Assembly: GCA_002718715.1 (NCBI GenBank)
Contig: PBFJ01000014.1
Coordinates: 12,447 to 76,446, forward strand
DNA from: a bacterium
GTDB taxonomy: Bacteria; Patescibacteriota; Gracilibacteria; UBA1369; GCA-2718715
Direction: 5' to 3'
DNA: 64,000 nt
The notes below the pieces were generated by a model that ran no database searches, had not been told where the DNA came from, and saw only the letters and a program-made list of their open reading frames with translations. Within the stretch, counting starts at the first letter, position 1. Each line of letters starts with the position of its first letter. A program made the translations under genes and the position numbers. Shown here piece by piece: positions 11,361-41,518 of this stretch.

Positions 11361-11388
11361 TTACAGTATTGATTAAATGTGATATAAT
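11361..11388 (+). promoter_or_regulatory. Sigma70-like promoter with extended -10 for the 793-aa gene
   Basis: TTACAG (11361-11366), 16-nt spacer, TGaTATAAT (11380-11388); 24 nt upstream of the ATG at 11413. Confidence 0.5.
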
Positions 11389-11412
11389 TAACAGATTAAA
11401 ATAATTTAAAAC

Positions 11413-13794: not shown

Positions 13795-13819
13795 GATTGT
13801 ATTAAGTTTTAAAGTAAAA

Positions 13820-13854
13820 AGTGTGATGCTAGATGGTTGGCTCACGCTTTTTTT
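13820..13854 (+). terminator. Rho-independent terminator after the 793-aa gene
   Basis: agtgtga / tcacgct 7-bp stem (one G-U pair) followed by T7 (13848-13854). The loop is rather large. Confidence 0.5.
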
Positions 13855-14056
13855 ATAAAAATATTTGGATACTAATTTGGAAGTTTTATTTAATTGATTT
13901 TGAATCTGTTGTAGTTTCTTTTAAAACTTTCAATACTGATTTACGAATTAAATTACAAGAGCTGGTGAGTGTTAAGGTTGCAACAATAGTTCCAGTAATT
14001 ACAGCTTTATTTAGCCTATGTAAATCATTGGGTTTGAGTTCTTTCATATTAATTAA

Positions 14057-14974
14057 TTAAAAAAATAGCATTATTGTTGGAATGTAAAATAAAGCAAAAA
14101 TGGTACTTATTAAAACTGCGATAGCTGCTTTGTCGGGGTGAACTTTTAGTTCCGTTGCAAGAGCTACAGTGTTTGCAGCTAATGGAACAATCGACATTAA
14201 AATCAAAATACTATGAACCTGTGCACTATAAAAATTTAAATATAAGTTATCAATTACAATAATTGATAAAACTACTGCAGGCCATATTAAAAATTTAGCT
14301 AAGAAAGTTAAACTCATGAATTTAAAGTCGATATGGCTTCTTTTAACACTTGATAGACCCATTCCAATTAACATCATACCCAATAGAGTATAAGCACCTT
14401 TAAAACTTTGAATTGTTGTTACTGCTAATTCTCCTAGATTGAATCCTAGATAATTCAGAGTTAAACCTGCAAAAAAAGCATATACTGTTGGTAATTTAAG
14501 TACTTTTTTAAAACTTTCGTAAGCTGTGTGACTGCCCTTTGCTGTAATAAAAAAACCTAAAGTATTTTCATAAAGTACAAAACCTAAAATCGATAAAACA
14601 GCTAAACTAAAAGCTTCTTCTCCAAGAACACCCATAACAACCGGCAGTCCAAAATAACCTGTATTACCTGTACCGGAAGTAAAGGCCAGAATGTTTTTTG
14701 TAGAGTCATTTTTAAATATTTTATTTCCGATCCAAAGAAAAAGTAAGCAAATCAAACAAGAAATAATTAAAAACAAAAGTGGTAATGTTAAATTGGCAAA
14801 ATTTAATTGTACAGTATAAGTACCATAAAAAATTACAACTGGACCAATCATGTAAATTAAAAGTTTAGCAATTCCTTCTTTTCCAACCTCTAGATATTTT
14901 GTAGCTACAAAACCCAAATAAATCATTAAATAAAGAGGAATTATCTTTAGTAAGATCGTCATAAAAATACTCAT
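14057..14974 (-). CDS. AEC (auxin efflux carrier / Mem_trans) family permease
   Basis: 305 aa and polytopic. The N-terminus MSIFMTILLKIIPLYLMIYLGFVATKYL and overall ~10-TM layout are typical of the AEC family. Confidence 0.7.
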   Translation of the reverse strand: MSIFMTILLKIIPLYLMIYLGFVATKYLEVGKEGIAKLLIYMIGPVVIFYGTYTVQLNFANLTLPLLFLIISCLICLLFLWIGNKIFKNDSTKNILAFTSGTGNTGYFGLPVVMGVLGEEAFSLAVLSILGFVLYENTLGFFITAKGSHTAYESFKKVLKLPTVYAFFAGLTLNYLGFNLGELAVTTIQSFKGAYTLLGMMLIGMGLSSVKRSHIDFKFMSLTFLAKFLIWPAVVLSIIVIDNLYLNFYSAQVHSILILMSIVPLAANTVALATELKVHPDKAAIAVLISTIFALFYIPTIMLFF

Positions 14975-15081
14975 AATAATTAGTTAACAAGTAACATATA
15001 TAATCCTTTTACCAGGTATTGTCAAGAATGCAAAACTGTTCTAATTAAAATAATTTTAACTCTAAATAGATTTAGATTTCT

Positions 15082-23404: not shown

Positions 23405-24187
23405 CTAAAGAAGGATTTCGTAGAAACCTTTGAAGCTCTCATGGATGTCTTTATGGTATGAAAAACAATAGATTTTTTGATTGTCCATAATAACTAAACT
23501 CACAAAAAAAGGTTTAGATGGATTGTTAATATAAAAAGACTCTTGGAATTGATTGTTTTTATTAATTTGGATTCCTTCATATGATTTTGTAACAGCTTGT
23601 AAAAGAGTATAAAAATAATCAGCTTTTTGAGAGTCTTCAAAAGTAATTTCTGTACCTTTGGCCATTAAACTATTTTGCTTAGTGTACTTATAATTTTTGA
23701 ATGACTGAAAATCCTCTTTTGATAAATCGATCGTGTCAAAAATCAAGGTTTGATTTTCATCTAAAGAAATTTCTAAGTCTTGAATATCGATAGAGGCAAA
23801 ATATTTTATAAGTTTAGACTCAACTTCTTGTGTTTTTGAAAGTGAAACTTCTTCTTGTGATGAGTCTTCTTGATCTGAACTTTTTAAAAAGTCTTTAAAA
23901 AATTCGGTGTTAAAACTTACCTCTTGGGATTCCTGGTTTAAATTTAAAGATTCTGAATCCTGGGAGATTTGAGAATCATTATTTTTTTGCTCTAAAGCTT
24001 GCTCTTGGAAATCTTGAACTTGAGAGCCTTGAGGCTCTGAAGTTTTAGAGTTTGAGGTTTGAAAGAAAGCTGAATTGGCTTGCAGTTGATTAGCTGGAGC
24101 CGATGGAGCTGTATTGAACTGGCTTTCTAGCAAAATTGTGATTGAAAAGAAGGCAAATATTGCCAAGAAAATTGTACTTTTGTGCAT
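23405..24187 (-). CDS. Hypothetical secreted Q/S/E-rich protein (260 aa)
   Basis: Signal-like N-terminus MHKSTIFLAIFAFFSITILLES. A low-complexity acidic region is followed by a ~130-aa globular C-terminus. Confidence 0.7.
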   Translation of the reverse strand: MHKSTIFLAIFAFFSITILLESQFNTAPSAPANQLQANSAFFQTSNSKTSEPQGSQVQDFQEQALEQKNNDSQISQDSESLNLNQESQEVSFNTEFFKDFLKSSDQEDSSQEEVSLSKTQEVESKLIKYFASIDIQDLEISLDENQTLIFDTIDLSKEDFQSFKNYKYTKQNSLMAKGTEITFEDSQKADYFYTLLQAVTKSYEGIQINKNNQFQESFYINNPSKPFFVSLVIMDNQKIYCFSYHKDIHESFKGFYEILL

Positions 24188-24838: not shown

Positions 24839-25159
24839 TTATTCAGCAGAAGCTTCTAGAGCGTCTGTTGATACTGGGTTAATTTGAATTGCACTTGAAT
24901 CAATTTCGTTACCGTCTTGATCTGTTAACTTGATTGCAGATGTATCAATTTGGGGTTGAATTGGAGCTACAGCTTGAGATTTAGGAGAAATATCAATTAG
25001 ATAGTTGTAGAATTCTTTAAATCCACCATCTACTACTGTTAGAAAACCAGTTGCGATAACTGTAAACACAACTGTTAATACAGTTATTGAAATGGCATGA
25101 TTTTTAGTCGGCCAAGTTACTTTTTCTAATTCTTTGTAACTATCTTTAAGAAATTTCAT
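24839..25159 (-). CDS. secE: Preprotein translocase subunit SecE (with C-terminal extension)
   Basis: ELEKVTWPTKNHAISITVLTVVFTVIATGFLTVVDGGF, and a position directly upstream of nusG. Confidence 0.8.
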   Translation of the reverse strand: MKFLKDSYKELEKVTWPTKNHAISITVLTVVFTVIATGFLTVVDGGFKEFYNYLIDISPKSQAVAPIQPQIDTSAIKLTDQDGNEIDSSAIQINPVSTDALEASAE

Positions 25160-25331
25160 GGGGTTTGATTTAAATTTAAATACCTTTAAAAAGCAGGTCT
25201 TTTTTTTATATATTATTAGAATTCACCAAAATTGCAAGCAAAAAATCAATTTCTTAAAGCTTAATTTATGCTGGTAATTAAATTGCAGAAAAATTATAAT
25301 TAGTGTATAATTATAGGAATTAAATGTATTT

Positions 25332-26255
25332 ATGAAATTTTTAAAGAAATTAGTAATTTTAGTTGGTGTTTTATTAATGGGTTTGAATCTAGCTTTTGCC
25401 GAGGAAGTTAATGAAATTCCTGCAAGACCTTTTTTACCAATTAATAACGAAGCTTTTGAGGAAGATTTTGTGAATATTTCAGATACCGAAAAGGAAGATT
25501 TCTTTGGTAAGTCTAGTATTTTACTAAAAGATGTAACTTTTATTATTCAACTATTAATTGGAGCCTTAGCTAGTATACTGACCATATCTTCTGTTTTATC
25601 TATGCTTACTGCTGGTATGGATAGTGAGGAAGGCATGACGAAATTAAAAGATACTATATTATATATAGTAATGGGTATTGGTCTTGTTTTCTTAGCTGGA
25701 GAAATTGGATCTTTATTAAGTCTGCAAAAAGGTGGGGTTATTGGATCTAAAACGGATGTGCTAAAAAGAGTTCAAATTTTTGATCAAAATGTAGAAGTGT
25801 TGATTGCTCTGATAAGATATACTTTAGCCGGACTTGCCGTTTTATTTATAACAATTTCAGGAGTTAAAATGGTAGCTGGGGCTGGAAGCGAAGAAGATGC
25901 AGCTAAAGAAAAATCTTACATTACTTATGCAGCAATGGGTTTGATATTATTTTTAATCTTCGACAATATATTAGGTAACATAATATATAGTATAGGTTCG
26001 CCTTTTACGGATCCGACTATTTCACCAAGCGGAGCTAAGATGGAGCTAATTGGATTTACTAATTTGGTAGTTTCCTTTGTAGGACCGGTTGCAATACTTT
26101 CAACTGTAATTGGTGGAGTTATGTATGCCTCAAGCGGATTTGATGAAGAACAAGCTGCGAAAGCCAAAAGAATGATTGGAGTTTCTTTAGCTGGAATTAT
26201 CTTAATCTATGCGGCTTATAGTATTATTGCAACTGTAGTTGCTGGACAATTTTAA
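25332..26255 (+). CDS. Secreted membrane protein made of three tandem VirB2/TrbC-like 'T4SS pilin' hairpin units (307 aa)
   Basis: Signal peptide MKFLKKLVILVGVLLMGLNLAFA. Then three copies of [TM - (A/S)G..(S/D)EE...K.K - TM]: LTAGMDSEEGMTKLKD, VAGAGSEEDAAKEKS, ASSGFDEEQAAKAKR. Confidence 0.75.
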   Translation: MKFLKKLVILVGVLLMGLNLAFAEEVNEIPARPFLPINNEAFEEDFVNISDTEKEDFFGKSSILLKDVTFIIQLLIGALASILTISSVLSMLTAGMDSEEGMTKLKDTILYIVMGIGLVFLAGEIGSLLSLQKGGVIGSKTDVLKRVQIFDQNVEVLIALIRYTLAGLAVLFITISGVKMVAGAGSEEDAAKEKSYITYAAMGLILFLIFDNILGNIIYSIGSPFTDPTISPSGAKMELIGFTNLVVSFVGPVAILSTVIGGVMYASSGFDEEQAAKAKRMIGVSLAGIILIYAAYSIIATVVAGQF

Positions 26256-26264
26256 CCTTTAAAT

Positions 26265-27248
26265 ATGCTTTCTTTTATAAAAAAATTTTTAATCTCACTT
26301 GGACTAATTAGTACCCTACTTTTTACAAACCTAGCTTTTGCTGAAACTCCTGATTCAAGTAACCCTCAAGGTTTCTTAAAAGATAGATTAGACTTAATTT
26401 TCGAAAAGTATTCAGCAGAAACTGGATTACTTCCTGTGTCTGATACCTCGTCGAAATTTGTTCTTGAAGAAAGAGGTTACTTTAATATAACATCTGTAGT
26501 TTATGCAATTATTGGTCTTATGAAATATGTAGCTTATGCCATAATGTCTATTACTATTGTGATTTCGATTGTTAAATTAATAACCGCTGGAAGCGAAGGG
26601 GCTGAAGAAGTTTGGGGGAATATGAAAAAGTACTTACTGCAAATTTTAATTGCAGTGGGGGTTATATTAACCGCTGAGTTTATTTTTAATAAAGTAATAA
26701 TGCCATCAGCTGTAAGTTCGATCGCAGGAGCCAAAGAGGCTGCCGGGCAAATTGGTGGAGAACTAGCTGGAATTGTTGGAATCATTCAAGGTTTAATTGT
26801 GATATTCTCAATCTGTATGCTAATTTTTGCTGGGAGTAAAATGGTTGCAAATATGGGAGATGAAGAAGCTATGAGTAAAGCTAAAAATCAAATTTTCTGG
26901 GGAGCTGGTGGTCTACTTGTAGTAATGTTGGGTGGAACTTTAGTTAATGAAATAATTTTTGTAAATGCCGAGTCGGTAGACCCAATAGCTGGATCTAGAT
27001 TGATTGTAAATATTACTAATTTTATTTCAGGAATAATTGGAACTATAAGTTTAATGGCATTCTTTTATGCCGGCGGCCAATACATTGTGGGTGGATTTAC
27101 AGAAGTCAACCAGGACTCAATTAAAAATGCGATATTTGGTGGAATAATTGGACTTGTGATAGCTCTTGGAGCATTTGCGATTGTTAACACTGTAATTGAC
27201 TTAGATAATCCAAGTGTACAGGTTTTTGATCAACAGCCAGAGTTTTAG
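26265..27248 (+). CDS. Second triple pilin-hairpin protein (327 aa), paralogue of 25332-26255
   Basis: Signal peptide ..LLFTNLAFA. Units ITAGSEGAEEVWGNMKK, VANMGDEEAMSKAKNQ and VGGFTEVNQDSIKNA, each flanked by TM helices. Ends with ..AFAIVNTVIDLD. Confidence 0.75.
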   Translation: MLSFIKKFLISLGLISTLLFTNLAFAETPDSSNPQGFLKDRLDLIFEKYSAETGLLPVSDTSSKFVLEERGYFNITSVVYAIIGLMKYVAYAIMSITIVISIVKLITAGSEGAEEVWGNMKKYLLQILIAVGVILTAEFIFNKVIMPSAVSSIAGAKEAAGQIGGELAGIVGIIQGLIVIFSICMLIFAGSKMVANMGDEEAMSKAKNQIFWGAGGLLVVMLGGTLVNEIIFVNAESVDPIAGSRLIVNITNFISGIIGTISLMAFFYAGGQYIVGGFTEVNQDSIKNAIFGGIIGLVIALGAFAIVNTVIDLDNPSVQVFDQQPEF

Positions 27249-27274
27249 TTTTTCAATCACAATATAATTTTTAT

Positions 27275-27302
27275 AACTAAGTTTTAGGACTTAGTTTTTT
27301 TT
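27275..27302 (+). terminator. Rho-independent terminator after the two pilin-like genes
   Basis: aactaagt-tttagg-acttagtt followed by T8. Confidence 0.65.
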
Positions 27303-27438
27303 ATTGAAAAAACTTTGTGCAAGATTTTTCAAAACCATGTATAATATACTTGTTAAAATTGTGCATTTCTGTGGTTTTTTGTTGTCAAAAAGCCCAAAAT
27401 TTGATACAATATAGGGAATAATAATTAATTAATTTTAA

Positions 27439-30400
27439 ATGGCGAAATTTAATAGAATTAAAAATTGTTTAAAAGCTGTATTTGTAGGCTTTTTTGCGAT
27501 TTTACTACTTGGAGCTTTAGGAGGCTCAAGTTATACAACTCATGCGGATTTTTGTTCGGATGTATCTTCTGAATTCGGAGGATTTTTGGAGTGTGATGAA
27601 AAATTTTCATCTTTTTCAAGTTTCCGAGGAGGAATCAAAGCTCCAACTGGAGATGGTCTTGATCCAAGTTTAACGCAAACTGACAGTGCTCAGGATTTTG
27701 TTTTAAATATTGCAAACTTTGCTCTTGGATTTTTAGGAACGATTGCAATTTTAGTAATTGTTTATTCTGGATTCTTATATGTGACTTCTGCGGTGGATGA
27801 CTCAAATATTGAATCTGCAAAAAACAATATAAAATACTCAATCTATGGAATCTTAGTAATCTTAGGTTCATACGCCATTGTGAACACAGTTATTCAAGCT
27901 CCAGGTGGAGACAGCTCTTCTCAACTAGCCAACCAATCAAACTTAGAACAATTAGATAGATTTAATTCAGTTGCTTTTGAATTAAAAGATATTGCAAGAG
28001 ACATGACGCAAGCCTATGAAATCTATCGCCAGGATACTACTAACCTTCGAAGTTTATTAGCTACCAAACCATCGGAGTTTAATACGAGAAAAAATACTAT
28101 TACACAACTGCAAAGAATGCGTAATGCATTTATTAACCTTGAAAAACAAAGAGGTGCACTTTCTAACACAGGATTTCTAGCAAGAGATGTAGTCGAATTT
28201 GGTATAGACCCTACAATTACTACCTTAAATGGTATTATTACTGCCGAAAGAGAAAGTGAATTGGAAAATCGATATAAAGATTCACCTGCGGCAAATTTAA
28301 TAGAAAACATCGCAGGAGGTGTAGCTAACTTTTTCGCAAATCTATTTGAAAAAGACGATGAAATGCTTTTTTATGTATGTTCATTAGAACCTGAAGATAG
28401 GCCTATAAGCTATAAAGTAGAAGACTGTGAAAATGCCTTTAGACCTCAAGCTCAAGGAATTGAATTAACTATTGATTTCAATCCAAATAGTAATATCGAC
28501 CCAGATGATGATAAATCAAAAACTCTTGGTGATTTGTATCCACTAACAAGTAAACTTGTAAAAGATTACAACGATATGAAAAACGATGATAACGATAACT
28601 CTGGAAATAAAATTCATGATTTTGTCTATTATAGAAATGCTATATTGATAGCTTACACTCTTGAAGCTGGTGTTAAAGAAGATTTTGATCTACAACTTTC
28701 AAATATTAAAACTAGAATGAAAGTGATAAAAGACTTGGTTTCTTCTTACCCAGAATTAAAAAATAATCTACAAGCTTTAATTGATGATCTTCCAGATGTA
28801 GTTGATGCCTCAAACAATGCAACTGCTGATTTTAAAGATGACGATGGAGCTGGATCTGATTGGCACGTATTTGATTTGAAAACAAGTGCAAAATCAACTC
28901 TTAGTTTTTCAGGTGAATCTACTCAAAAGAAAGTGGCAGGATTTATTCAATCCTTATCAGAAATTCATACTAAAATTGAAAATGCTAAATTCACTGTACC
29001 GGTGATTGATGTAAATGTAGTTGAAGGTTCAGCACCACTTGTTGTGACTTTTGATGCAAGTGGAAGTTATGATCCAAGTAATAGATCTGTGCTAACAGAT
29101 AGTCAAGATTCGGGAGTTAATGATAATGTAAATAGATTACTGTGGGACGTAAATGGAAATGGAAAATTTGAGTCTTCGGTAGGAGTTACTAGTAATACAG
29201 AGCCTTTCTCTGCTATTAATTCTGAGCAAATTAGCTGTAGTAATTATGAGTCTGAAAGCGTTTCTTTTACATGTACATTTAAACAACCTGGATCTTTTAG
29301 AGTAGGGTTAATGCTTAAATCCCTTTCGCAAACTTCAACAGTTGATGCTGCTCCGTGGGTAGAAGCAATGAGTGATCAACCAGTTACTGGTCCTATTCTA
29401 CTTGATGTGGAATCTGAGCTGAAAAATATTCTGACTGGGATTGCTTATCAAACAATTAGAGTAAAACCTCCGACTTCGAGGATTAACCTGCTTGGATACT
29501 CCTCTACAAATAGTGCTTTTAGTGGAGATATGTTAATGAACTCTCTAAATTCAATTGATACAATTGGTGACAAGGGTTTAAGATGGCATTCAGAGAGTGG
29601 AATTTTATTATATGACAATCCTGAAATTAAATTTACCTTAGCTGAAGCTAGCTCTGGGATTACTTTTGATGCTTCATTTTCTGAACCAAGCGAAAATTTA
29701 AATAGGTTTTCATGGAGATTTTCAGATAAAGCTGGTAACTTTTCTGGAACTACTGGTACACCAGAGAATTTACCTGATAATCTAATTAATGATTCAAATA
29801 CAGAGATTATTCAAGATAATCTTTTGGGGCCGAAAATCACGCGGAATTTTGACAAGAGAGGTCGAGTGCAAGTGCAACTTGAAGTGGAAGATAATAATGG
29901 AAACTTAGATAGAAAAATGTTTGATGTTGTGGTTGGAAGCTTGGTTGCAAGATTAAGAACCAATAAAACTTCTGGATTTATTGGTGAAGAGTTTACATTA
30001 AGTGCAGAAGACTCAAGATCAGACTTTGGATCAATTACTTATAAATGGACAGTAGATGGTGAAGAAAATGCCTTGGATTGTAATGCTGATAACGATGATT
30101 TTGTATGTTCTTTCAATGAAGATGGAGATGTTTTAAGATTTAGAGCTTTGCAACCTAAAGATTTTAATATTTCGGTAGAAGTTTCTTCGGAAAGTGCTGA
30201 GGGTGTATCTGAATCGGCTTCGGTGAATTTGGATGTGAATCCAAGACCGCTTGAACCGCTAATTGTGATTGATCAAAATAGTCTGTTTGATCCGGCTAAA
30301 TTTACTTTAAATGCAAGTTTAACTTCTGATCCAGATGAGCAAATTGATAATTTTAATCCAGCTGCAAGCTATACCACTGAATATGAATGGAAAGTTTTAA

Positions 30401-33400
30401 ATGGAGTTGAAAATACTGATTATCAAGAATTAATTCCTGATAATCAAGAAGAAACAGAAATAACTTTCTTAAAACCGGGAACTTACCGAATTGGTTTGAA
30501 GGCTAGTAAAGTTTCTACTGATGAACCTAATGAGGTTTTAGTGAGTAGTACTGCGGAAAGCTCGTTGCTGGTAAGTGGTGTTATGAACTTAGTATTAGAT
30601 AATCCTGGAGCTGGAACGCTTGAAGCCAATGTAGAAACTGGATTACTTGAAAGTGGTGAAGTAGTTGTGACTGTGACTTCAAGAACTGCGAATCGAGTTA
30701 CTTTGGACTTTGGAGATGGAACTCGTGAATCATTAAAAAGACCTGCAGGTATAGCTTCAGGTCAGGATCATAGATTTGAGTTTACACATACTTATGCCTT
30801 AGCTGGTTCATATAAAATTGGGGTTTTTGCAGAAAGTGAAACTGAATCAAAAGCTTTAAGTAGTACGATTATTATTGGTGGTGGAGATACTCCTACTGCG
30901 GTAATTGCGGCTACTGTGGGTGGAAACACTTTCTTAAGTGGAGCTAATGATCTGCCTGATGTATTTAGAAAAACTAGAATTGAGTTTGATGCTTCGAAAT
31001 CTTTGAACTTAGATGGGACAAATAAAGGTCTTAAATATTCATGGGATTTAGGAGATGGTACTACTAGAACTCAAAAGAAATTTATTTATAACTATAAAGA
31101 TTATCCGCCTCTTGGGGAACCTGGATTTGATGTTACTTTAACTATTACGGATGCCAAAGATCCGGAAGTTACAAATACTGCAAATTTATTTGTACCACTT
31201 GGTAAAGCGAAACCTTCGATTGAAAATATCTCAGCTGAAAGTATTAATGGTCCAGTTACACCTTTTGATGTAAGAGTTAAAGCTGTGGGTCCTTATGATG
31301 CTGATGGTAGAATCGAAACATTTAGATACTACTACTTCCCTCTTGATGATCCAGATGAACAATTAGGAGTGAGAGTTTCTAAATCAGCAACTGAAGTACT
31401 TAGAATAGGAACTAGGGGTGATGAAGGCGAAGAAGTTGACTATGGAATTTGTATTGATGTGATTGATAACGAAGGAATTGAAAGAAAATGTGAAGTTATG
31501 TTCTTAGAAGGAACTCCGGCTGTGATTACAGCAATAAATGGAGAAAATAAATTACCTTCTTCTAAATTTAGAGCTGATAAAACTTCGGTGAAAATTGGAG
31601 AAAGCGTGACTTTCTTTGACCAATCTTTCGATCCAGATGGAACAGTAGTTGAAAGAAAATATGATATTTTAGGTGATGGAAGTTTTGCGAACGATGAAGT
31701 TTTTATTTCTAGAGCTTCTGTAATTAATTACGATACTATTTCTCCTAGAAAAGGATTTAGAGTTGTGCAACAAGTTGTGGATGACAAAGGTGGAGTTGCA
31801 GTTAGTAATCCTATCTTTATATATGTAGAATCAAATTTTGAACCACCTGAAGCTGCCTTTGTGGTTGAAGTAGATGGAATGGATATTTCTATCCAAAATA
31901 ATTCTCAAGCGGACGTAAATGCAAATATTGCGAGTTATGGATGGGATTTTGATATTAAAACAGATTCAGATGGAAATGATGTTGCAGATGACGACTTGGA
32001 CTCTACTGAAAACGAACCAAACTTTACTTATACAAGAAGTGGTCAAAAAACTATTAAACTAACTGTTACTGATAATGAAGGAAATGTGGATACAGCTACT
32101 GAAACTATTGAAATTGGTGGAAAATTAGCCCTTCCAAGAGCAGCCTTTAATTTCTCGAGAGATAAATTAAAAGTTGTTACAAAAAACAATTCTGAAGCGG
32201 ACTTTATTAACGGTGGTGAAATTGTTTCATATGAATGGGATTTTGATATTGCTACGGATTCCAAAGGTGGAAAAGATCCGGCAAACAATGTTGATTCAAC
32301 TAGTAAAAATCCAGTTATAAATTACGATAAGCCAGGAACTTATACAGTTGCATTAACTGTGGAAGATAACGAAGGTAACCGTGATAGAATTGAAAAAGCA
32401 ATCGCGGTTCAAGAAGAAAAAACTGCTAAACCCCAAGCTGCCTTTACCTATGAAGTTTTAGAGGATAAAACTGTGAAATTCACCAGCAATGCAAAAGTTG
32501 CTGAAGGATCTAATTTAACAATTCGAGAAATTTATTGGGATTTTAATATAAATCCAAATGATCCAAATGCGGATGCAGATGGAAATGGATTTGCAGACGA
32601 TGATCAAGAAGAAGTTGGAAACAACTCTCCTTCTTTCACTTACGATAGTTATGGAGTAAAAAGAGTTTCATTAACTGTTACTGATTCGGCTTTAAGTACA
32701 GATACTGTTGAAAGAATAATTGAGATTCCTTTTCCTCAGGCTGCAACTCCCACTCAACAAGCTATAAATGATTTAAGTAATAGTGGACAAGCTCCTCAAA
32801 ATGCAACAAATGTTCCAACTAATCAGCAAATATTTCCTGGAAATATTAATCCTAATGCAAGCGGACTTTCTGCTGACAATAATAGAATTTTTCAAAAAAC
32901 TCCTGAACAAATTGCAATCGAAAGAGAACTTGGAATTGGACAAGATTCACAAGATGACTCTAGTACAGTTCAAGATAGTTTAGATTCATCGCAAAGCTTA
33001 ACGGATTTTAATCCAAATAAATTTATTATTACTGAGCCTGCCTACAATGAGTTTACAGATAAATTAACTTCAACTGAAAACTCTCAAGTTGTGACTTTTA
33101 AATTTGATCATCTTCCAAGTGAAATTATTGAAATTCAAGTTGATTCTAATGTTTATGTAGATACTAGTAACGATGGGATTTTTAACAACGATGTGGATTT
33201 TAGAACTATAAGTAAACAAGATTTCACAACAACTTATACATCTACATCAAGCGATATTAGAGCCAGAGTTACTTTAATTGATAACACTGGAGTCAAATAC
33301 TATGATTCGATTGATATTGAATTTAAAGGGTTGGATTTCTCTGCATCTTTAAACTTAGATGGAGATAAAACTATGCAAACTGCTTCAGTTGCTGTTTTTC

Positions 33401-33447
33401 TAACAGGAGCTTCAGCATTATTAGTTCGTTTGATAAGACTTTTTTAG
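27439..33447 (+). CDS. Giant surface protein (2002 aa): signal peptide + one pilin-like hairpin + helical stalk + long PKD/Ig-like array + C-terminal TM anchor
   Basis: N-terminus ..LGFLGTIAILVIVYSGFLYVTSAVDDSNIESAKNNIKYSIYGILVILGSYAIVNTVI shares the AIVNTVI end motif with 26265-27248. There are >=12 PKD-type modules with WDF/WDL..GDG signatures (YSWDLGDGT, YGWDFDIKTDSDGN, YEWDFDIATDS, IYWDFNINPND). C-terminus ..ASVAVFLTGASALLVRLIRLF. Confidence 0.9.
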   Translation: MAKFNRIKNCLKAVFVGFFAILLLGALGGSSYTTHADFCSDVSSEFGGFLECDEKFSSFSSFRGGIKAPTGDGLDPSLTQTDSAQDFVLNIANFALGFLGTIAILVIVYSGFLYVTSAVDDSNIESAKNNIKYSIYGILVILGSYAIVNTVIQAPGGDSSSQLANQSNLEQLDRFNSVAFELKDIARDMTQAYEIYRQDTTNLRSLLATKPSEFNTRKNTITQLQRMRNAFINLEKQRGALSNTGFLARDVVEFGIDPTITTLNGIITAERESELENRYKDSPAANLIENIAGGVANFFANLFEKDDEMLFYVCSLEPEDRPISYKVEDCENAFRPQAQGIELTIDFNPNSNIDPDDDKSKTLGDLYPLTSKLVKDYNDMKNDDNDNSGNKIHDFVYYRNAILIAYTLEAGVKEDFDLQLSNIKTRMKVIKDLVSSYPELKNNLQALIDDLPDVVDASNNATADFKDDDGAGSDWHVFDLKTSAKSTLSFSGESTQKKVAGFIQSLSEIHTKIENAKFTVPVIDVNVVEGSAPLVVTFDASGSYDPSNRSVLTDSQDSGVNDNVNRLLWDVNGNGKFESSVGVTSNTEPFSAINSEQISCSNYESESVSFTCTFKQPGSFRVGLMLKSLSQTSTVDAAPWVEAMSDQPVTGPILLDVESELKNILTGIAYQTIRVKPPTSRINLLGYSSTNSAFSGDMLMNSLNSIDTIGDKGLRWHSESGILLYDNPEIKFTLAEASSGITFDASFSEPSENLNRFSWRFSDKAGNFSGTTGTPENLPDNLINDSNTEIIQDNLLGPKITRNFDKRGRVQVQLEVEDNNGNLDRKMFDVVVGSLVARLRTNKTSGFIGEEFTLSAEDSRSDFGSITYKWTVDGEENALDCNADNDDFVCSFNEDGDVLRFRALQPKDFNISVEVSSESAEGVSESASVNLDVNPRPLEPLIVIDQNSLFDPAKFTLNASLTSDPDEQIDNFNPAASYTTEYEWKVLNGVENTDYQELIPDNQEETEITFLKPGTYRIGLKASKVSTDEPNEVLVSSTAESSLLVSGVMNLVLDNPGAGTLEANVETGLLESGEVVVTVTSRTANRVTLDFGDGTRESLKRPAGIASGQDHRFEFTHTYALAGSYKIGVFAESETESKALSSTIIIGGGDTPTAVIAATVGGNTFLSGANDLPDVFRKTRIEFDASKSLNLDGTNKGLKYSWDLGDGTTRTQKKFIYNYKDYPPLGEPGFDVTLTITDAKDPEVTNTANLFVPLGKAKPSIENISAESINGPVTPFDVRVKAVGPYDADGRIETFRYYYFPLDDPDEQLGVRVSKSATEVLRIGTRGDEGEEVDYGICIDVIDNEGIERKCEVMFLEGTPAVITAINGENKLPSSKFRADKTSVKIGESVTFFDQSFDPDGTVVERKYDILGDGSFANDEVFISRASVINYDTISPRKGFRVVQQVVDDKGGVAVSNPIFIYVESNFEPPEAAFVVEVDGMDISIQNNSQADVNANIASYGWDFDIKTDSDGNDVADDDLDSTENEPNFTYTRSGQKTIKLTVTDNEGNVDTATETIEIGGKLALPRAAFNFSRDKLKVVTKNNSEADFINGGEIVSYEWDFDIATDSKGGKDPANNVDSTSKNPVINYDKPGTYTVALTVEDNEGNRDRIEKAIAVQEEKTAKPQAAFTYEVLEDKTVKFTSNAKVAEGSNLTIREIYWDFNINPNDPNADADGNGFADDDQEEVGNNSPSFTYDSYGVKRVSLTVTDSALSTDTVERIIEIPFPQAATPTQQAINDLSNSGQAPQNATNVPTNQQIFPGNINPNASGLSADNNRIFQKTPEQIAIERELGIGQDSQDDSSTVQDSLDSSQSLTDFNPNKFIITEPAYNEFTDKLTSTENSQVVTFKFDHLPSEIIEIQVDSNVYVDTSNDGIFNNDVDFRTISKQDFTTTYTSTSSDIRARVTLIDNTGVKYYDSIDIEFKGLDFSASLNLDGDKTMQTASVAVFLTGASALLVRLIRLF

Positions 33448-33467
33448 TTTTTAATCAAAGTTTATTT

Positions 33468-33476
33468 TGCTATAAT
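33468..33476 (+). promoter_or_regulatory. Extended -10 element (TGcTATAAT) upstream of the 713-aa PKD gene
   Basis: tgctataat at 33468-33476, 23 nt before the ATG at 33500. The -35 is weak. Confidence 0.4.
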
Positions 33477-33499
33477 TTGTTTGTAATAATTTTTACTTT

Positions 33500-35641
33500 A
33501 TGAATGAGAACGAAAACTTTAATGAATTTAACGATAGTAACGAAATCCATAATGATTTTGAAGACTTTGATGAAATCTTAATTGATAACGATTTTAAGAA
33601 TGATGCTGAGCCATCAAAAGATAAAAAAAAGAAAAAATCTGCCAATAAAGGCCTGACTCTAATGATGATTTCTATCGCTGGAGTTTTGGTTTTATCTTTT
33701 GTATTAACTGGACTTCTATTTGGATTATCCTCTGGAGAAGATAATGCAATTTTAGCTTCAATTGGAATCTCAGCTTTGAATGCTGTTAACTTTTTAAAAC
33801 TAAGTCTTACTTTAGTATTCGGACTTTCAAGTTTGGTGGGTCTTTTGTTTTTCTTAATTAATTTATTTTCATATACACAAATTGATTTTTTGGAAGTAGA
33901 AGAAAGAAAACTCAAATTTAAAAATGTAATTTTTGGTGGAGTGACCTTTTTTGTATCGGTTGTACTAGCATTATTAATCGCTGTATTTTGGAATACAGGT
34001 CCTAAAGAAGAAGTTAAAATTGAATATATTGGAACTAATTTAGAATCGACTTTAAACTTAACTGCTCCAATTGAAATTGAATTTTCTGCTAAAAATTTAC
34101 CTATAGATACATCCAAAGCTCAAATTGTATCATATAATTGGAACTTTGGTGATGGTGACTCTGGAACTGGACAAACTATTTTTAAGACTTATAAAGATAA
34201 ACCAGCAACTGGAGTTTATGAAGTTAAACTTGGAGTGAGTTATTTTGAGGTAGCTGATAAATCTCAAGAAATTAAAACTCTGGAATTTACAAGATTAGTT
34301 GGAATCGACAATGTAGAGGTTACTGCAGACTTTGAAATGCAACCTAAAACAGGATTTGCTCCTTTATTAGTAGAATTTGATGCTTCAAGTTCTGTGGATC
34401 CAGATGGTTCAATTATTTTATATGAATGGGATTTTAATGGAGACTCAGTAGTTGATAGCGAAGGAGTTAAAGGTGAGTTTACTTATGAAAACGTAGGTTT
34501 ATTTAAACCAACTTTGATTGTAACTGATAACAATGGAAGAAGTTCAAAAGTATCTAAAGATTTAATTGTTAAGACGGATGAAGTTTTTACACCAAGAATT
34601 AAAGTTAGTCCTAGTGATGATGTTTTGACTCCGAATAGAAGTTATCAATTTGATGCCTCTGATTCATTAAGCCTAGAAGGTGAAATTACAAATTACAAAT
34701 GGAACTTTGGTGATGGAAAAGAAAGAGTTGGAAGAAAAGTTTCTTACAGCTTTGAAAACGAAGGTATTTATGAAATAACTTTAGAACTTTTAGATGATGC
34801 AGGAAACAAGACTCAATACTTTGAAAACTTTACTGTGTCTTCCTCCCCTTCTGGATTATTTCCAAAGATTACTTCAATCCCTGAAATTGTAGATGGAAAA
34901 ATTGAAGGTCAAATTCCTTTTAAAATACAACTTGATGCTGGAGCTTCATCGGGAGCTAAAATTGTTGAGTATTCTTGGGATTTTGAAAACGATTCAGTTT
35001 TGGATGCTTCTGGTCAATTAGTTGAGCATGTTTATACTGTTCCAGGTAAATATGATTTGAAACTTACTATAACTTCAGCAGCTGGAAAAACAGCAAGTAA
35101 AATTGTAGAAGTTGAAGTATTTGATTCAGATTTAAGACCTGAAGTAAGTGCTAACCCTAGCCTTGGAAATGTACCTTTAGAAGTAACTTTTGATGCATCT
35201 GCAACTAAAGCACCTGTAGGAGCTAATATTGTACAGTTTAGATGGAATTTTGATGATGGAACTCCAGTTTTAAGAGCTGGTTCGACTGTAACTCACCTCT
35301 TTACAAGAACTGGAGAATTTAATGTTGAAGTTACAGCTGTAACTGATGAGAATGAAATAGCTTCGACTAACATTTTAGTATTTGTAAATGAAATCCCTTT
35401 GAAAGCTTGTTATAAATCTTCAAGAATTGAAGGTCCTGCGCCTTTGACTGTATTATTTAATCCTAATTGTACTACTGGAAATGTAGCTAGATTTGAATGG
35501 GATTTTGCAGGTCTGGGAGACTCTGAAGATAGAAAGCCAAGCTTTACATTTGAAGAAGCTGGAGAATTTGAAGTAATTTTAAAAGCTTTTGATCCAGATA
35601 ATAACCTTTCAACTTTCAAAGAAACTATTAAAGTAAAATAA
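33500..35641 (+). CDS. Membrane protein (713 aa) with N-terminal TM hairpin(s) and ~7 PKD domains
   Basis: Acidic N-terminus, then TM segments around ..GLLFGLSSGEDNAILASIGISAL.. Repeated PKD signatures follow: YNWNFGDGDSG, YEWDFNGDS, YKWNFGDGKE, YSWDFENDS, FRWNFDDGT, FEWDFAGLG. Confidence 0.9.
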   Translation: MNENENFNEFNDSNEIHNDFEDFDEILIDNDFKNDAEPSKDKKKKKSANKGLTLMMISIAGVLVLSFVLTGLLFGLSSGEDNAILASIGISALNAVNFLKLSLTLVFGLSSLVGLLFFLINLFSYTQIDFLEVEERKLKFKNVIFGGVTFFVSVVLALLIAVFWNTGPKEEVKIEYIGTNLESTLNLTAPIEIEFSAKNLPIDTSKAQIVSYNWNFGDGDSGTGQTIFKTYKDKPATGVYEVKLGVSYFEVADKSQEIKTLEFTRLVGIDNVEVTADFEMQPKTGFAPLLVEFDASSSVDPDGSIILYEWDFNGDSVVDSEGVKGEFTYENVGLFKPTLIVTDNNGRSSKVSKDLIVKTDEVFTPRIKVSPSDDVLTPNRSYQFDASDSLSLEGEITNYKWNFGDGKERVGRKVSYSFENEGIYEITLELLDDAGNKTQYFENFTVSSSPSGLFPKITSIPEIVDGKIEGQIPFKIQLDAGASSGAKIVEYSWDFENDSVLDASGQLVEHVYTVPGKYDLKLTITSAAGKTASKIVEVEVFDSDLRPEVSANPSLGNVPLEVTFDASATKAPVGANIVQFRWNFDDGTPVLRAGSTVTHLFTRTGEFNVEVTAVTDENEIASTNILVFVNEIPLKACYKSSRIEGPAPLTVLFNPNCTTGNVARFEWDFAGLGDSEDRKPSFTFEEAGEFEVILKAFDPDNNLSTFKETIKVK

Positions 35642-35651
35642 CCCTAAAAAA

Positions 35652-35735
35652 ATGATGAAACAAGTAATGTCAATTTTAGTAATTGTTGGTCTTCTAAGCA
35701 TGATGATTCTACCTGCTTTTTTATTTGCTACTTAG
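35652..35735 (+). CDS. Candidate 27-aa hydrophobic micro-protein
   Basis: Below the ORF-track cutoff. ATG lies 10 nt after the PKD gene stop. MMKQVMSILVIVGLLSMMILPAFLFAT is a single TM helix. No homology evidence. Confidence 0.35.
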   Translation: MMKQVMSILVIVGLLSMMILPAFLFAT

Positions 35736-35815
35736 GTTATACAATATTTACTAATTCACACAATTTTAAGACTTAGTAAAGTTAGTTATAATTTAAATGT
35801 TAATAATTTTCTACT

Positions 35816-36682
35816 GTGCCAACTAATTTAATGGACAACTCGAATTTAGACTCAAATGATCAATCTTCGAACTCTACAAACCCTATAACTTCAAGTAAAG
35901 TTTCTGAAATAAAACTATCTGATCCTAAAAGTTCAGATATGGGTTTTGTGGATGACTTTAAACTTTTCCTAGCAGAAAACTCTAATTTAGTAATTGGAGT
36001 TAGCGTTGGTACATTAATTTTAGTTTTTGGAGTATTGTTTGCACTAAGTTCAAATCAATCAATCGAAAACCAAAATACACTTTCAGAAATTGCATCAAGT
36101 GCTACTGGGGCCTTGATTGTAGATGAACCATCAAGTTCTGCCAGTGATAAACCTCCAACTTTAGTTGCAAAAACTGATACCAACTCAGGAACTTCAAATA
36201 CAAATTCTAGTAAAGACTCCTCTACTTCTTCGAATAAAAAACCGATTACATTGCCGCCTTTGAGTATCAATGAATTGCAAGATAGTCAAAATAGTAATAA
36301 TACTTTGAACGTAAATGATATTAGTTCAGGAAATTTATCTAACCAAGCTCTAAGCAATCAAAATCCAAATGGACAAAGTCCGTTTGCTGGAGGCTCTTCA
36401 TTTTTAGGAGCTAATACTCAGGCTGCTAATCAAGTTGGATCTCCGGCTGGAGGAATTCAAAATTTATCTGCAAATATTCCTGCGGCTTCTGCTAATACAG
36501 CTAATAGTTTGGGAGCTAATCCAAATATGAATCGAACTGGTGGATTTTTATCGAATACACAATCTCAGGTTTTACAATCTAGAAATGTTCAAGGAAACAC
36601 AGGTCCTGCTGTTTACTATACTTTAGCGTTTAGCTTTTTAGCTTCCTTTTTGTATAGACTAAGAAAAAAGAAGACTGATTAG
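35816..36682 (+). CDS. Ser/Asn/Thr-rich low-complexity membrane protein (288 aa) anchored at both ends
   Basis: GTG start (or ATG at 35831). TM LVIGVSVGTLILVFGVLFAL, a long S/T/N/Q-rich region, and a C-terminal hydrophobic segment plus basic tail (VYYTLAFSFLASFLYRLRKKKTD). Confidence 0.7.
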   Translation: MPTNLMDNSNLDSNDQSSNSTNPITSSKVSEIKLSDPKSSDMGFVDDFKLFLAENSNLVIGVSVGTLILVFGVLFALSSNQSIENQNTLSEIASSATGALIVDEPSSSASDKPPTLVAKTDTNSGTSNTNSSKDSSTSSNKKPITLPPLSINELQDSQNSNNTLNVNDISSGNLSNQALSNQNPNGQSPFAGGSSFLGANTQAANQVGSPAGGIQNLSANIPAASANTANSLGANPNMNRTGGFLSNTQSQVLQSRNVQGNTGPAVYYTLAFSFLASFLYRLRKKKTD

Positions 36683-36936
36683 TCCTCTTTTTTGCTAGAT
36701 TTTTTAGCTTCTTTAACTTCTTCTTTAAGTTCTTTTTTTAGATCATCGAATTCTTCTTTGAGTTCTTTTCTTAAATCTTTAAAGAAACTTTTGGCTTTAT
36801 CAATCCATTTTTCTTTCTTGATTTTCGACTTTATGTTTTTTCTGATGTTTTCACCTTTATCTGGAGAAAATAAAACGCCTACAGTTGCACCTGTGATAAC
36901 TCCGAGAATCAGGGAAATTATTCCTTTTTTCTTCAT
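36679..36936 (-). CDS. YtxH-like small membrane-associated protein (85 aa)
   Basis: MKKKGIISLILGVITGATVGVLFSPDKGENIRKNIKSKI.. matches the YtxH G-x3-G..FAP/FSP..G motif. I use the internal ATG at 36936 rather than the ORF-track start 37095. Confidence 0.7.
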   Translation of the reverse strand: MKKKGIISLILGVITGATVGVLFSPDKGENIRKNIKSKIKKEKWIDKAKSFFKDLRKELKEEFDDLKKELKEEVKEAKKSSKKED

Positions 36937-37056
36937 ATTAATTGTGTTATTTATTACATTATACAGCAGAATTAATTTAATAAAAACATATTTTTTAAAT
37001 TGAATTGACTTTTGCTTTGAATATATGTAGTCTTTTGTTACTAATAATGAAAATAT

Positions 37057-37323
37057 ATGCCAATTATTAAATCTGCTAAAAAGAGAGTAAAACAAGCTTT
37101 AAAAAGAAAGCTTAATAACAATAGATTTAAAAGAAGATTACACGATTTACAAAAATCTTTCTACGATGCTATTAAAGCCAATGATATGAAAAAAGCTGAA
37201 GGTGAACTTTCAGGTGTTTATAAAATCATTGATACTTGCGCAAAGAAAAATATCTTACCAAACAACAGAGCTAACAGAATGAAATCTAAAGCTCAAAAAT
37301 CTGTAAGCCCTAAAGCTAAATAA
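37057..37323 (+). CDS. rpsT: 30S ribosomal protein S20
   Basis: MPIIKSAKKRVKQALKRKLNNNRFKRRL.. is typical of S20. Confidence 0.9.
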   Translation: MPIIKSAKKRVKQALKRKLNNNRFKRRLHDLQKSFYDAIKANDMKKAEGELSGVYKIIDTCAKKNILPNNRANRMKSKAQKSVSPKAK

Positions 37324-37776: not shown

Positions 37777-39150
37777 ATGAAAACCCTACAAAAATTTGCT
37801 ATGAGCCTTTCTTTAATGTCTGCTGCTTGTAGTGTAAATCCTAGGATTCAACTCCCTAGTGATTTAAGAGACTCACATAGTTTGATTGAATCAAAAAGTG
37901 ATCCGATTAATAAAGCTCTGCACTCAGTATATTCTGTTGCTTATTCGACCGTAAACGCGTTTACCTTAAGTTCCTTGATTAAAACTCACGAAGGATTTGA
38001 CACAACAAAACCTGGAGCTTATAGAATTGGAAATTCTGTTGTTTACTTTAAAGATATAGAAGATGGTTATAAACTTAGTATTGAAAACGAAGGTAAATCT
38101 GATCAAGAGGTAAATATAGAAGCAAATGAATTACTATCAACAATTTATGAGATTTACTATGCATCTTTTGGATTAAAAGTAATTGGACTTTCATTTGATG
38201 AAAATATGAAACCACAAATTAAAAAGTTAACTGGAGAAAATATTTCTAATAAAATTATAACAACTGGTGTGGAAGAAATAGAACTTACTACTTCAGAAAG
38301 TGTTAGCTTAAGGTATATAAGACAGTTCACAGGAAAAGTTTCACTACCAAATGCTACAGATTTACATACCGTAATTGATCCTTTATTTTTCCAAGAATTT
38401 TCAGCACCAAGCGTAACTGAAATTATTTTCTCTTTAACCCTACCTTTTGCAAGCCAAGTAAACTTAATTAACTTAAAAGATATAAGAGCTATATTGGTAC
38501 CTAAAATCCAAGAACTAAGACTTCCTAATCTAAAAAATGCAAAAAATATAGAGGCTTCAAGCGCAAAGTTAGTTGAAATCCCATCATTAGAAACTATGGA
38601 TGGCGTTTTAGATATTAGATCTTGTGAAGAATTAACAATAAATGAAAAAATTGAAAAAACTTTTACTAATATATGGAAAATTGGATTTGCAGTAAAAAGA
38701 GTTGGGGACTTTCCTAATTTTCCAAAAGTAATTCTTGGTCCGGAGAATTTTGAAACTTTGAAATCTAAATTCAATTTAGATGAAAAATTTATCTATCCTT
38801 ATGCAAGTAGGACTAACTCGAATCAAAAAATTGCAAGATTTGAATCTCATGATCCTCTAAAAGAAATTGAGTCTATTAATATAGGATCTTCAGATTACCC
38901 TTACGAAGGTTCAAGCATTGAATTGGAGCAGATCATAAAAGAATTAAGTCAAAATGACTTACCTGAAGGAAAAACTATCAAAGTCTTTATTTCAAGAAAT
39001 AACTTTGACTCAGTAACAAATATTTTTAGAAATGAAATTGAAAAGCTACCTGATCATAATCATCTTAAAACTGTAAAAATTATTATTAACGGAATAGAAT
39101 ACATCTTCAACAAGGATGAAAAAAGAAGATACTTTGAGATGATAAAATAA
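37777..39150 (+). CDS. Hypothetical lipoprotein (457 aa) with LRR-like segment
   Basis: Lipobox-like LSLMSAACS. The central region (..LRLPNLKNAKNIEASSAKLVEIPSLETMDGVLDIRS..) resembles BspA-type LRRs. Confidence 0.75.
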   Translation: MKTLQKFAMSLSLMSAACSVNPRIQLPSDLRDSHSLIESKSDPINKALHSVYSVAYSTVNAFTLSSLIKTHEGFDTTKPGAYRIGNSVVYFKDIEDGYKLSIENEGKSDQEVNIEANELLSTIYEIYYASFGLKVIGLSFDENMKPQIKKLTGENISNKIITTGVEEIELTTSESVSLRYIRQFTGKVSLPNATDLHTVIDPLFFQEFSAPSVTEIIFSLTLPFASQVNLINLKDIRAILVPKIQELRLPNLKNAKNIEASSAKLVEIPSLETMDGVLDIRSCEELTINEKIEKTFTNIWKIGFAVKRVGDFPNFPKVILGPENFETLKSKFNLDEKFIYPYASRTNSNQKIARFESHDPLKEIESINIGSSDYPYEGSSIELEQIIKELSQNDLPEGKTIKVFISRNNFDSVTNIFRNEIEKLPDHNHLKTVKIIINGIEYIFNKDEKRRYFEMIK

Positions 39151-41011: not shown

Positions 41012-41518
41012 TTACCACCAAACATCTTTAATTTTTAGCTTATAGCTAATATAGTTTGTAGCAAAATGTAAAAAAGGAGTTATTATTAAAATCAATAATG
41101 TTTCAAAAAGTGGCAGTTTATAAAATGGTAACGTACAAATAATTGCTCCTAGTATTAAATCAATTTGGTCGAATGGAAACCAGGGTTGTCCAGACTGAAT
41201 CCCCTTTTTTCTTTTAAAATATGATTTTAATGCATCTCCTCCAAGGGCACCTAAAGTCATTAGAAATGATAAGATAAATATATTTTCCTGGCTATAATTA
41301 ATTAAATTAAAGTTTTCTATCAAATAGATTTTTTGAAGATAGACTGTAAGTAAAGCAGCTAAGTATCCAAAAATTAGGCCACGATAAGTTTTGTTTTTTC
41401 CTAGTTTTCTTTCGTTTAGAGATTTATCAAATGGAAGATTAAGCTTCTTTGCTAGTACTGGAGCCATATTTGCAATGTATGCTGGAAGAAAAAAATAAAA
41501 TGTTTGAAGTAATAACAT
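41012..41518 (-). CDS. carS: CDP-archaeol synthase-like (CarS / DUF46 family) integral membrane protein
   Basis: 168 aa. FFLPAYIANMAPVL, GKNKTYRGLIFG, LGALGGDALKSYFKRKKGI, FPFDQID and C-terminal ITPFLHFATNYISYKLKIKDVWW line up with the archaeal CarS pattern as I remember it. Confidence 0.7.
   Translation of the reverse strand: MLLLQTFYFFLPAYIANMAPVLAKKLNLPFDKSLNERKLGKNKTYRGLIFGYLAALLTVYLQKIYLIENFNLINYSQENIFILSFLMTLGALGGDALKSYFKRKKGIQSGQPWFPFDQIDLILGAIICTLPFYKLPLFETLLILIITPFLHFATNYISYKLKIKDVWW

Follow-up and report, generated by a model that had tools for sequence, protein, structure and literature searches.

A conserved cassette of fused VirB2-like hairpins and PKD-domain proteins beside secE-nusG in Peregrinibacteria and Peribacteria

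Introduction

What would six co-oriented genes for pilin-like hairpins and PKD-domain surface proteins build, and which machinery would serve them when none is recognisable nearby? This question is raised by positions 25161-36682 of a 64,000-nucleotide (nt) stretch of contig PBFJ01000014.1 (assembly GCA_002718715.1, Gracilibacteria by GTDB lineage), which we refer to as the window. The original prediction, made from the letters of the window, regarded this segment as its strongest candidate for an undescribed system. Here we report that its core of four genes, g1 to g4, is a variant, seen in Peregrinibacteria/Peribacteria, of the known VirB2-like pilin arrays of Patescibacteria rather than a system new in kind; "undescribed system" was an overstatement, since PF18895 pilins and their multi-gene arrays are published (PMC10633639, PMC12102498, PMC12857230) and some orthologues are already named "pilin" by NCBI. 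What is undescribed relative to the published arrays is the form it takes, with hairpin concatemers, hairpin-adhesin fusions, eight fixed hairpin positions and a housekeeping location. We found no description of fused hairpins, hairpin-PKD fusions or a secE-linked cassette in the literature, including PMC10633639, PMC12102498, PMC12857230 and PMC4736985.

The Patescibacteria, or Candidate Phyla Radiation (CPR), account for a large part of bacterial diversity and apparently live attached to other cells, while little is known of how they attach and exchange material beyond a few cultured Saccharibacteria. They carry a monoderm-type type IV secretion system (T4SS) with VirB2-like pilins, and Southlakia epibionticum cannot grow as an epibiont without its T4SS gene cluster, of which an array of six pilin genes is a part (PMC10633639; reviewed in PMC12857230). 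VirB4 is present in 2,417 of 3,035 Patescibacteria assemblies, and 1,948 VirB4-containing assemblies have VirB2-like pilins (PF18895/PF04956); a pilin lies near virB4 in only 1,135 of these (PMC12102498), so separation of pilin and machinery is common. The same survey counted 441 arrays of 2-11 pilin genes, an array being a set of pilin genes that are in tandem or have a single gene between them. For the class Gracilibacteria, it described dispersed T4SS parts, with TrsD and VirB3 homologues mostly not near virB4, and detected no VirB6 homologues, which are "scarce" in Microgenomatia (PMC12102498).

Results and discussion

Pilin-type hairpins in four adjacent proteins

We collected related loci by scanning one genome per GTDB species with an alignment of g1, which returned 80 loci (L007-L086), and added six more (L001-L006). 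The features of the window are listed in Table 1. The proteins g1, g2 and g3 scored 58.2, 40.5 and 29.4 bits against PF18895, all above its curated cut-off of 26.6 bits, which bears out the original reading of VirB2/TrbC-type hairpins. Among 60 g1-family proteins, PF18895 matched all 60, PF04956 (TrbC/VirB2) matched 43 (best E-value 1.3e-10), and DUF6112 matched 38. The NCBIfam family NF045849 weakly matched g2 (E 7.5e-8) and g3 (E 3.6e-7), with all scores below its 40-bit family cut-off. Because the matches to PF18895, PF04956 and NF045849 agree, homology to conjugative pilins is well supported. The profile searches, in which the original prediction foresaw a possible assignment to an unrelated transporter family, showed no similarity of the hairpin proteins to any transporter family.

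Like VirB2/TrbC proteins, they combine a signal peptide with two hydrophobic helices separated by a short charged loop. They depart from canonical VirB2, a small single hairpin surrounded by VirB4 and a T4SS cluster: g1 and g2 are tri-hairpin proteins, g3 and g4 reach 2002 and 713 amino acids (aa), and no such cluster was recognised around the genes in the window, nor a candidate ATPase within 10 kb in 86 loci. As adjacent PF18895 genes of low mutual identity, g1, g2 and g3 constitute a pilin array as defined in PMC12102498.

Both g1 and g2 carry a type I signal peptide (aa 1-23 in g1, AFA/EE) followed by six transmembrane (TM) helices, which hydropathy and our own hairpin hidden Markov model (HMM) resolve into three linker-joined helix-loop-helix hairpins. 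The original prediction of fused hairpins stands; Pfam and the HMM, which finds three domains in each protein, agree on three apiece. The number is fixed across relatives, with exactly three hairpins by HMM in 77/77 g1 and 78/78 g2 orthologues, and seven hydrophobic segments in 73 of the 77 g1 orthologues. Hairpin units of g1 and g2 pair by position (first with first, second with second, third with third), the g3 hairpin is nearest the third unit of both, and mutual scores among the units are just 13-59 bits. The loops read G-x-(S/D)-EE...K-x-K. In an AlphaFold2 model of g1 built with 60 homologues, 10-residue blocks of the hairpins mostly had a predicted local distance difference test score (pLDDT) of 75-91, linkers were below 50, and the predicted template modelling score (pTM) was 0.32. 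The low linker and pTM values suggest "hairpins on a string" whose packing against one another is not fixed.

The giant protein g3 joins one such hairpin to an ectodomain. A signal peptide or anchor (aa 10-30) and a short Cys-containing outer segment precede the hairpin, which is followed by a variable helical region (aa ~160-520), an ectodomain of ~1,450 aa rich in immunoglobulin (Ig)-like and PKD domains, and a C-terminal TM with a basic tail. Across 46 orthologues, the hairpin holds 11 invariant columns and aa 160-520 none; one hairpin was found in 58 of 59 orthologues, and a C-terminal TM in roughly 40 of the 59 (21 by a strict criterion, the others counted by eye). A word-index homologue search with the N-terminal region recovered only 3 proteins, and its single-sequence AlphaFold2 model had a pLDDT of 37. 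A subclade without the C-terminal TM (L004, L018, L020, L021, L033, L038, L040, L043, L051, L054, L055, L063, L070, L072 and L073) ends instead in a PKD-like domain with the conserved motif NFEKxWGKTVVKLTVxDIYGN...EIKF.

The fourth protein, g4, has a predicted cytoplasmic N-terminus rich in acidic residues and Lys (aa 1-50) and TM1 (aa 56-74), followed by a divergent hairpin formed by TM2 and TM3, beyond which six PKD domains are placed outside. Three N-terminal hydrophobic segments recur in its orthologues. An HMM of the g4 hairpin matched 54 of 56 orthologues and cross-matched g1, g2 and g3; the copy in the window is marginal by this HMM (E 0.0024) and by NF045849 (E 0.0094 at aa 103-161). 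The pilin hairpin attributed to a PKD protein was clear for g3 by PF18895, and that of g4 had been overlooked.

Table 1 Positions of the cassette, its hairpins and its flanking features in the window.
Feature	Position	Strand	Length or residues	Basis and remarks
secE	24839-25159	-		Left flank; Pfam
secE/g1 divergent intergenic region	25160-25331			Presumed cassette promoter region; divergence kept across relatives
g1, tri-hairpin "poly-pilin"	25332-26255	+	307 aa	PF18895 (T4SS_pilin), three stretches, E 8.6e-16
g1 hairpin 1	~25515-25709	+	~aa 62-126	
g1 hairpin 2	~25776-25988	+	~aa 149-219	
g1 hairpin 3	~26037-26243	+	~aa 236-304	
g2, tri-hairpin paralogue of g1	26265-27248	+	327 aa	PF18895, three stretches, E 3e-10
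g2 hairpin 1	~26487-26702	+	~aa 75-146	
g2 hairpin 2	~26760-26960	+	~aa 166-232	
g2 hairpin 3	~26991-27200	+	~aa 243-312	
Terminator- or attenuator-like hairpin after g2	27275-27302	+		ACTAAGT-TTTAGG-ACTTAGT, then T8; putative function
Best sigma-70-like match 5' of g3	27382-27410	+		TTGTCA-17-TACAAT with TG, 10/12 matches
g3, giant hairpin-PKD surface protein	27439-33447	+	2002 aa	PF18895 at aa 81-149, E 8.5e-7; PKD/PKD_4
g3 hairpin, h3-type, VirB2-like	27688-27897	+	aa 84-153	Hairpin HMM, E 1.9e-23
g3 C-terminal TM with basic tail	33388-33444	+	aa 1984-2002	
g4, PKD membrane protein	33500-35641	+	713 aa	PKD_4, six stretches, E 4.5e-72
g4 divergent hairpin (TM2-TM3)	~33782-33982	+	~aa 95-161	
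Micro-ORF, hydrophobic	35652-35735	+	27 aa	Open reading frame list; accessory, possibly not a gene
g6, S/N/T-rich	35816-36682	+	288 aa	TM at aa 58-76; hydrophobic C-terminus with RKKK tail
YtxH-family gene	36679-37095	-		Right flank; Pfam

A four-gene cassette kept across the lineage

The 80 scanned loci were titled mostly Candidatus Peregrinibacteria or Peribacteria, and the rest mostly Gracilibacteria or Patescibacteria group; one is a 95%-identical marine metagenome-assembled genome. In essentially every locus reaching far enough, g1-g2-g3-g4 stand in this order and diverge from secE-nusG-(unassigned open reading frame, ORF)-rplK-rplA, with g2 directly after g1 in 78 orthologous loci. The locus conservation that the original prediction had proposed to look for therefore exists, with the four-gene order kept in about 80 species beside secE-nusG, and the cassette is a lineage-wide and evidently indispensable envelope module of Peregrinibacteria, in which a shared hairpin joins VirB2-like pilins to adhesins. 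It is kept at a median identity to the window of ~30% for g1-g4, vs 68% for NusG. When the hairpins were sorted into eight classes, the best match in another genome always belonged to the same class (545/545). This positional orthology points to non-equivalent places for the hairpins in one assembly.

Spacing in relatives is short, with median gaps of 2.5 nt (g1-g2), 52 nt (g2-g3) and 9 nt (g3-g4), and 127.5 nt between secE and g1; the short gaps across relatives indicate that g1-g4 form an operon. The g2-g3 gap of the window, at 190 nt, is at the upper end of the lineage range. With the four genes so tightly packed in relatives, the division into three transcription units put forward originally is weakly supported. 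The terminator invoked for it after g2 is a real hairpin followed by T8; it is AT-rich and failed the G+C rule of our consensus scan. Promoter-like hexamers before g3 and g4 (before 27439 and 33500) also exist, the latter with TATAAT at ~33472-33477, yet such matches are no rarer in shuffled sequence, with 32 found vs 46.7 expected. Since promoter-like matches do not exceed the shuffles, the best sigma-70-like match 5' of g3 is a mere candidate.

Hairpin concatemers in other lineages

We searched 1.84 billion representatives exhaustively with phmmer, which returned 1032 relatives at E-values up to 1e-3. Among the best 150 of these, 113 proteins had three hairpins, 18 had four, 2 had five, 4 had six and 1 had eight. 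A locus from a different lineage (L087; JGI 3300029288, Ga0265297_10004127, 9925-16481, 47% G+C, with RecO and FtsX as neighbours) holds a row comprising an 820-aa protein with eight hairpins, a 155-aa protein with one, a 383-aa hairpin-PKD protein, and a 718-aa PKD membrane protein that shares 30% identity with g4; no ATPase was found within 10 kb. A metagenome scan with the 8-hairpin protein (P0076) recovered its own contig only. Of four other multi-hairpin proteins examined in context, all have additional pilin genes next to them, and three belong to arrays that contain single-hairpin pilins. The occurrence of 3-8-unit concatemers in other lineages shows hairpin concatenation to be a general feature of CPR pilins, one on which the papers we consulted are silent; it is linked to PKD proteins in at least two lineages, that of the window and that of L087.

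These comparisons bear on whether the four proteins belong together. The hairpin might be a reusable membrane anchor, with g3 and g4 acting as independent adhesins and g1 and g2 as unrelated small polytopic proteins, for example stress-related or lipid-organising ones, whose co-transcription would be a historical accident. We regard such a lack of any joint structure as improbable: AlphaFold2 gives no confident packing of the hairpins (pTM 0.32) and direct evidence of interaction is lacking, as this explanation would have it, but ~80 species keep the four-gene order and its operon-like spacing at ~30% identity, L087 has a similar module in another lineage and context, and the hairpin is the most conserved part of g3.

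Assembly model and the machinery

We propose that the g1-g4 proteins enter the cytoplasmic membrane via Sec/YidC, with charged loops in the cytoplasm and linkers outside. Their hairpins would pack laterally, like those of VirB2/TraA in conjugative pili, into one hetero-oligomeric, membrane-rooted stalk or platform. The g1 and g2 concatemers would provide the bulk of the lattice, and the g3 and g4 hairpins would co-assemble with them, mounting PKD adhesin arms toward a partner or host cell; specificity would be set by the variable ectodomains. Assembly or extrusion would most likely be served by a VirB4-type T4SS of the patescibacterial kind, with its genes at another place in the genome. To this array, assembled with a distant VirB4-type T4SS and forming a hairpin lattice that mounts PKD adhesins, we assign about an even chance of being correct. 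Machinery elsewhere is somewhat likelier than an autonomous structure because VirB4 is common and dispersal is typical of the class. The supplement of PMC12102498 has no entry for GCA_018701435, Peregrinibacteria or Peribacteria; we found no literature joining Peregrinibacteria and VirB4, and no VirB4 figure specific to Peregrinibacteria.

Several observations weigh against this proposal. We scanned ORFs of at least 100 aa up to position 61764 with Pfam, and those of no known family with NCBIfam, and looked for Walker A motifs across the window; the Pfam scan did not extend to the three ORFs at 61752-63647 or to a few overlapping internal ones. No VirB4, VirB6, VirD4, VirB11, type IV pilus ATPase, prepilin peptidase, sortase or usher was recognisable in the 64-kb window, and its P-loops belong to ABC transporters, a thymidylate kinase, or bare motifs in proteins without an NTPase-family match. 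Nor did any of 86 loci show, within 10 kb of the cassette, an unassigned ORF of at least 380 aa bearing a Walker A motif. The absence of machinery noted originally thus holds by all three scans and extends to ~80 related genomes within 10 kb. Fused hairpins, the uncleaved-looking tail and TM1 of g4, and the C-terminal anchors of g3 poorly fit extraction into a long filament. A Foldseek comparison of the g1 model with the PDB gave nonspecific helical matches only (E >0.5), and a profile search of PDB sequences with g1 gave nothing at E-values up to 10. Co-assembly of g1-g4 is suggested by shared domains and gene linkage only, and we know of no experiment showing that any PF18895 protein forms a pilus.

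The original prediction named two options, machinery encoded elsewhere and a Sec-dependent, self-assembling structure, both of which still stand. In the second, which would be independent of any T4SS, the eight Sec/YidC-inserted hairpins would self-assemble as a closed ring or raft of fixed stoichiometry and anchor the PKD arms without ever forming a pilus. We consider this possible, at a lower probability than assembly with a distant T4SS. Positional orthology and two fixed trimers suit a defined complex over an open-ended polymer; g4 orthologues have a cytoplasmic tail of 50-150 aa and an extra TM, and most g3 orthologues have a C-terminal TM, so that both proteins look permanently membrane-bound. 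No candidate ATPase was found near the cassette in ~80 species, and its position by secE-nusG on the presumed leading strand is a fixed, housekeeping one. However, long leader peptides are present on the propilins of VirB2, TraA and TrbC, so the g4 N-terminus could be cleaved; one g3 subclade has no C-terminal anchor. Lack of linkage is common in the family and proves nothing, and in other settings this domain goes with T4SS clusters (PMC10633639, PMC12102498). From the non-equivalence of the hairpins and the extra anchors of g3 and g4, it seems that the structure, at least at its base, remains in the membrane and has a defined composition.

A further alternative makes the hairpin bundle a channel or conduit, that is, a membrane pore or short tube through the wall that would take up host molecules while the PKD arms hold the host, standing in for VirB6. 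The VirB2 lattices of known pili enclose a lumen, and the loops in our alignments keep an acidic-then-basic pattern; VirB6 homologues are those not detected in class Gracilibacteria (PMC12102498). The proteins show no similarity to VirB6/TrbL or any transporter family. This explanation is purely speculative and we judge it unlikely. A more far-reaching proposal, which we hold to be doubtful, is that the conjugative-pilin hairpin has been recast as a Sec-inserted, ATPase-independent building block, forming a 3+3+1+1 ring or short tube as an organelle for PKD anchoring and host contact or conduit. If true, this ring or tube would represent a new class of VirB2-derived envelope organelle, possibly replacing the VirB6 undetected in class Gracilibacteria.

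The cassette offers a concrete, testable model of the role of the essential "pilin arrays" of Patescibacteria, with adhesins mounted on a pilin lattice; if the structure proved VirB4-independent, the conjugative pilin fold would have been reused as a self-assembling membrane scaffold. Natural experiments are on offer in the concatemers of 3-8 hairpins, the eight non-equivalent positions, and the g3 proteins with or without a C-terminal anchor.

Two other appendage types were considered for the locus and rejected. For type IV pili, Tad or competence systems, the signal peptides are of type I (AFA/E) and Pfam showed no PilB-type ATPase, PilC or prepilin peptidase in the window. For sortase-assembled pili or adhesins, the C-termini of g3 and g6 have a TM and basic tail without LPXTG, and no sortase was recognised in the window.

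Flanking and neighbouring genes

ORF calls and Pfam confirmed the six + strand ORFs within 25161-36682 and both flanking genes, secE and YtxH, as described in the original prediction; the conserved unit is the four genes g1-g4 (25332-35641) rather than six. The micro-ORF and g6 are local, lineage-specific accessories outside it, found again only in relatives ~90% identical in DNA. The micro-ORF is intact at the same length in two relatives ~90% identical in DNA, and no counterpart was detected in other lineages when loci were compared downstream of g4. The g6 protein had no family match in Pfam or NCBIfam, and homologues were found only in L001 and L007 among the related loci. Genes 3' of g4 vary from lineage to lineage. 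Large ORFs downstream of g4 were considered as an ATPase or VirB6 and rejected: they are unmatched in Pfam, lack a Walker A motif, have at most a few TM segments and are not conserved. In L004 (20846-20963 and beyond), small membrane proteins and an SLH-domain protein follow the cassette, which hints at an S-layer context.

The window has ~31% G+C. In nearly all of its 2-kb blocks, the G-C skew is either positive or close to zero. The cumulative skew climbs across the window, so 25161-36682 lies on the G-rich, presumed leading strand. The intergenic region between secE and g1, which probably holds the cassette promoter, gave only weak -10/-35-like matches in the promoter-consensus scan. One or two extra + strand ORFs of 267-936 aa lie between secE and g1, immediately 5' of g1, in L009, L015, L016, L017, L019, L022, L025, L048, L052 and L064; nearly all of these are without predicted TM segments. 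As candidates for an ATPase or VirB6, the extra ORFs at this place (81-936 aa) were rejected, since none bears a Walker A motif, TM segments are few or absent, and the six scanned with Pfam were unmatched. On the other side of secE, the slot between nusG and rplK holds an ORF of 260 aa with a hydrophobic N-terminus and no Pfam match (23405-24187, -); an ORF of ~200-310 aa fills this slot in nearly all related loci, an unusual conserved break in the secE-nusG-rplKA cluster.

Elsewhere in the window, a pentapeptide-repeat protein of 2573 aa (3138-10859, -) consists almost wholly of PF00805 repeats (E 9.5e-205); small helical ORFs of 122-123 aa at its flanks (50-418, 2653-3024 and 10890-11261) have no family match. 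Large ORFs without a credible Pfam or NCBIfam match encode proteins of 723 aa (424-2595, +), 793 aa (11413-13794, +), 457 aa (37777-39150, +), 515 aa (50895-52442, +) and 1467 aa (53515-57918, -); the 723-aa protein has Gly/Ala-rich hydrophobic stretches close to its C-terminus. The ORF at 41012-41518 (-) matches PF01864 (E 2.4e-35), the family of CarS-like CDP-archaeol synthases, which are lipid enzymes of archaeal type, here encoded by a bacterium.

Comparison with known systems

Canonical conjugative pilins are single small hairpins encoded beside VirB4, VirB6 and other T4SS genes, and they form a homopolymeric tube. The proteins of the cassette share with VirB2/TraA/TrbC (PF04956) the helix-loop-helix with a charged loop and Sec-dependent insertion; unlike them, they are concatemers and adhesin fusions with no adjacent machinery, in a host thought to be monoderm. 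In the fused c-subunits of rotary ATPases, two or three copies of a TM hairpin on a single chain set the stoichiometry of the hairpin ring. They serve as an analogy only, as there is no sequence relationship and no ion-binding site here. The pilin-like protein of the Mycoplasma integrative and conjugative element (ICE), family Mbov_0395 (NF045849), shows weak single-hairpin similarity and comes from a wall-poor monoderm context, but that family is single-hairpin and ICE-borne.

The Pam pili (PamA/PamB), surface filaments peculiar to the CPR, resemble the PKD proteins in having Ig-like folds, and the PKD domains here faintly match PamR; Pam pilins are Ig-fold subunits assembled by donor-strand exchange with chaperone-like factors (bioRxiv 10.64898/2026.03.03.709456). 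A Pam pilus was rejected, as PamR matched at 19.8 and 18.4 bits vs a cut-off of 300 and no other Pam model was matched by the scanned proteins.

The nearest likeness is to the VirB2-like arrays of Patescibacteria, such as SEML1_0006-0019 of Southlakia epibionticum and that of Nanosynbacter lyticus TM7x, which likewise have PF18895 domains, divergent paralogous hairpins side by side, CPR hosts and signal peptides, and are often unlinked to virB4. In contrast to those arrays, the cassette carries three hairpins per polypeptide in g1 and g2, has two hairpins fused to PKD adhesins, and is placed next to secE-nusG instead of within a T4SS cluster, with each hairpin position conserved lineage-wide.

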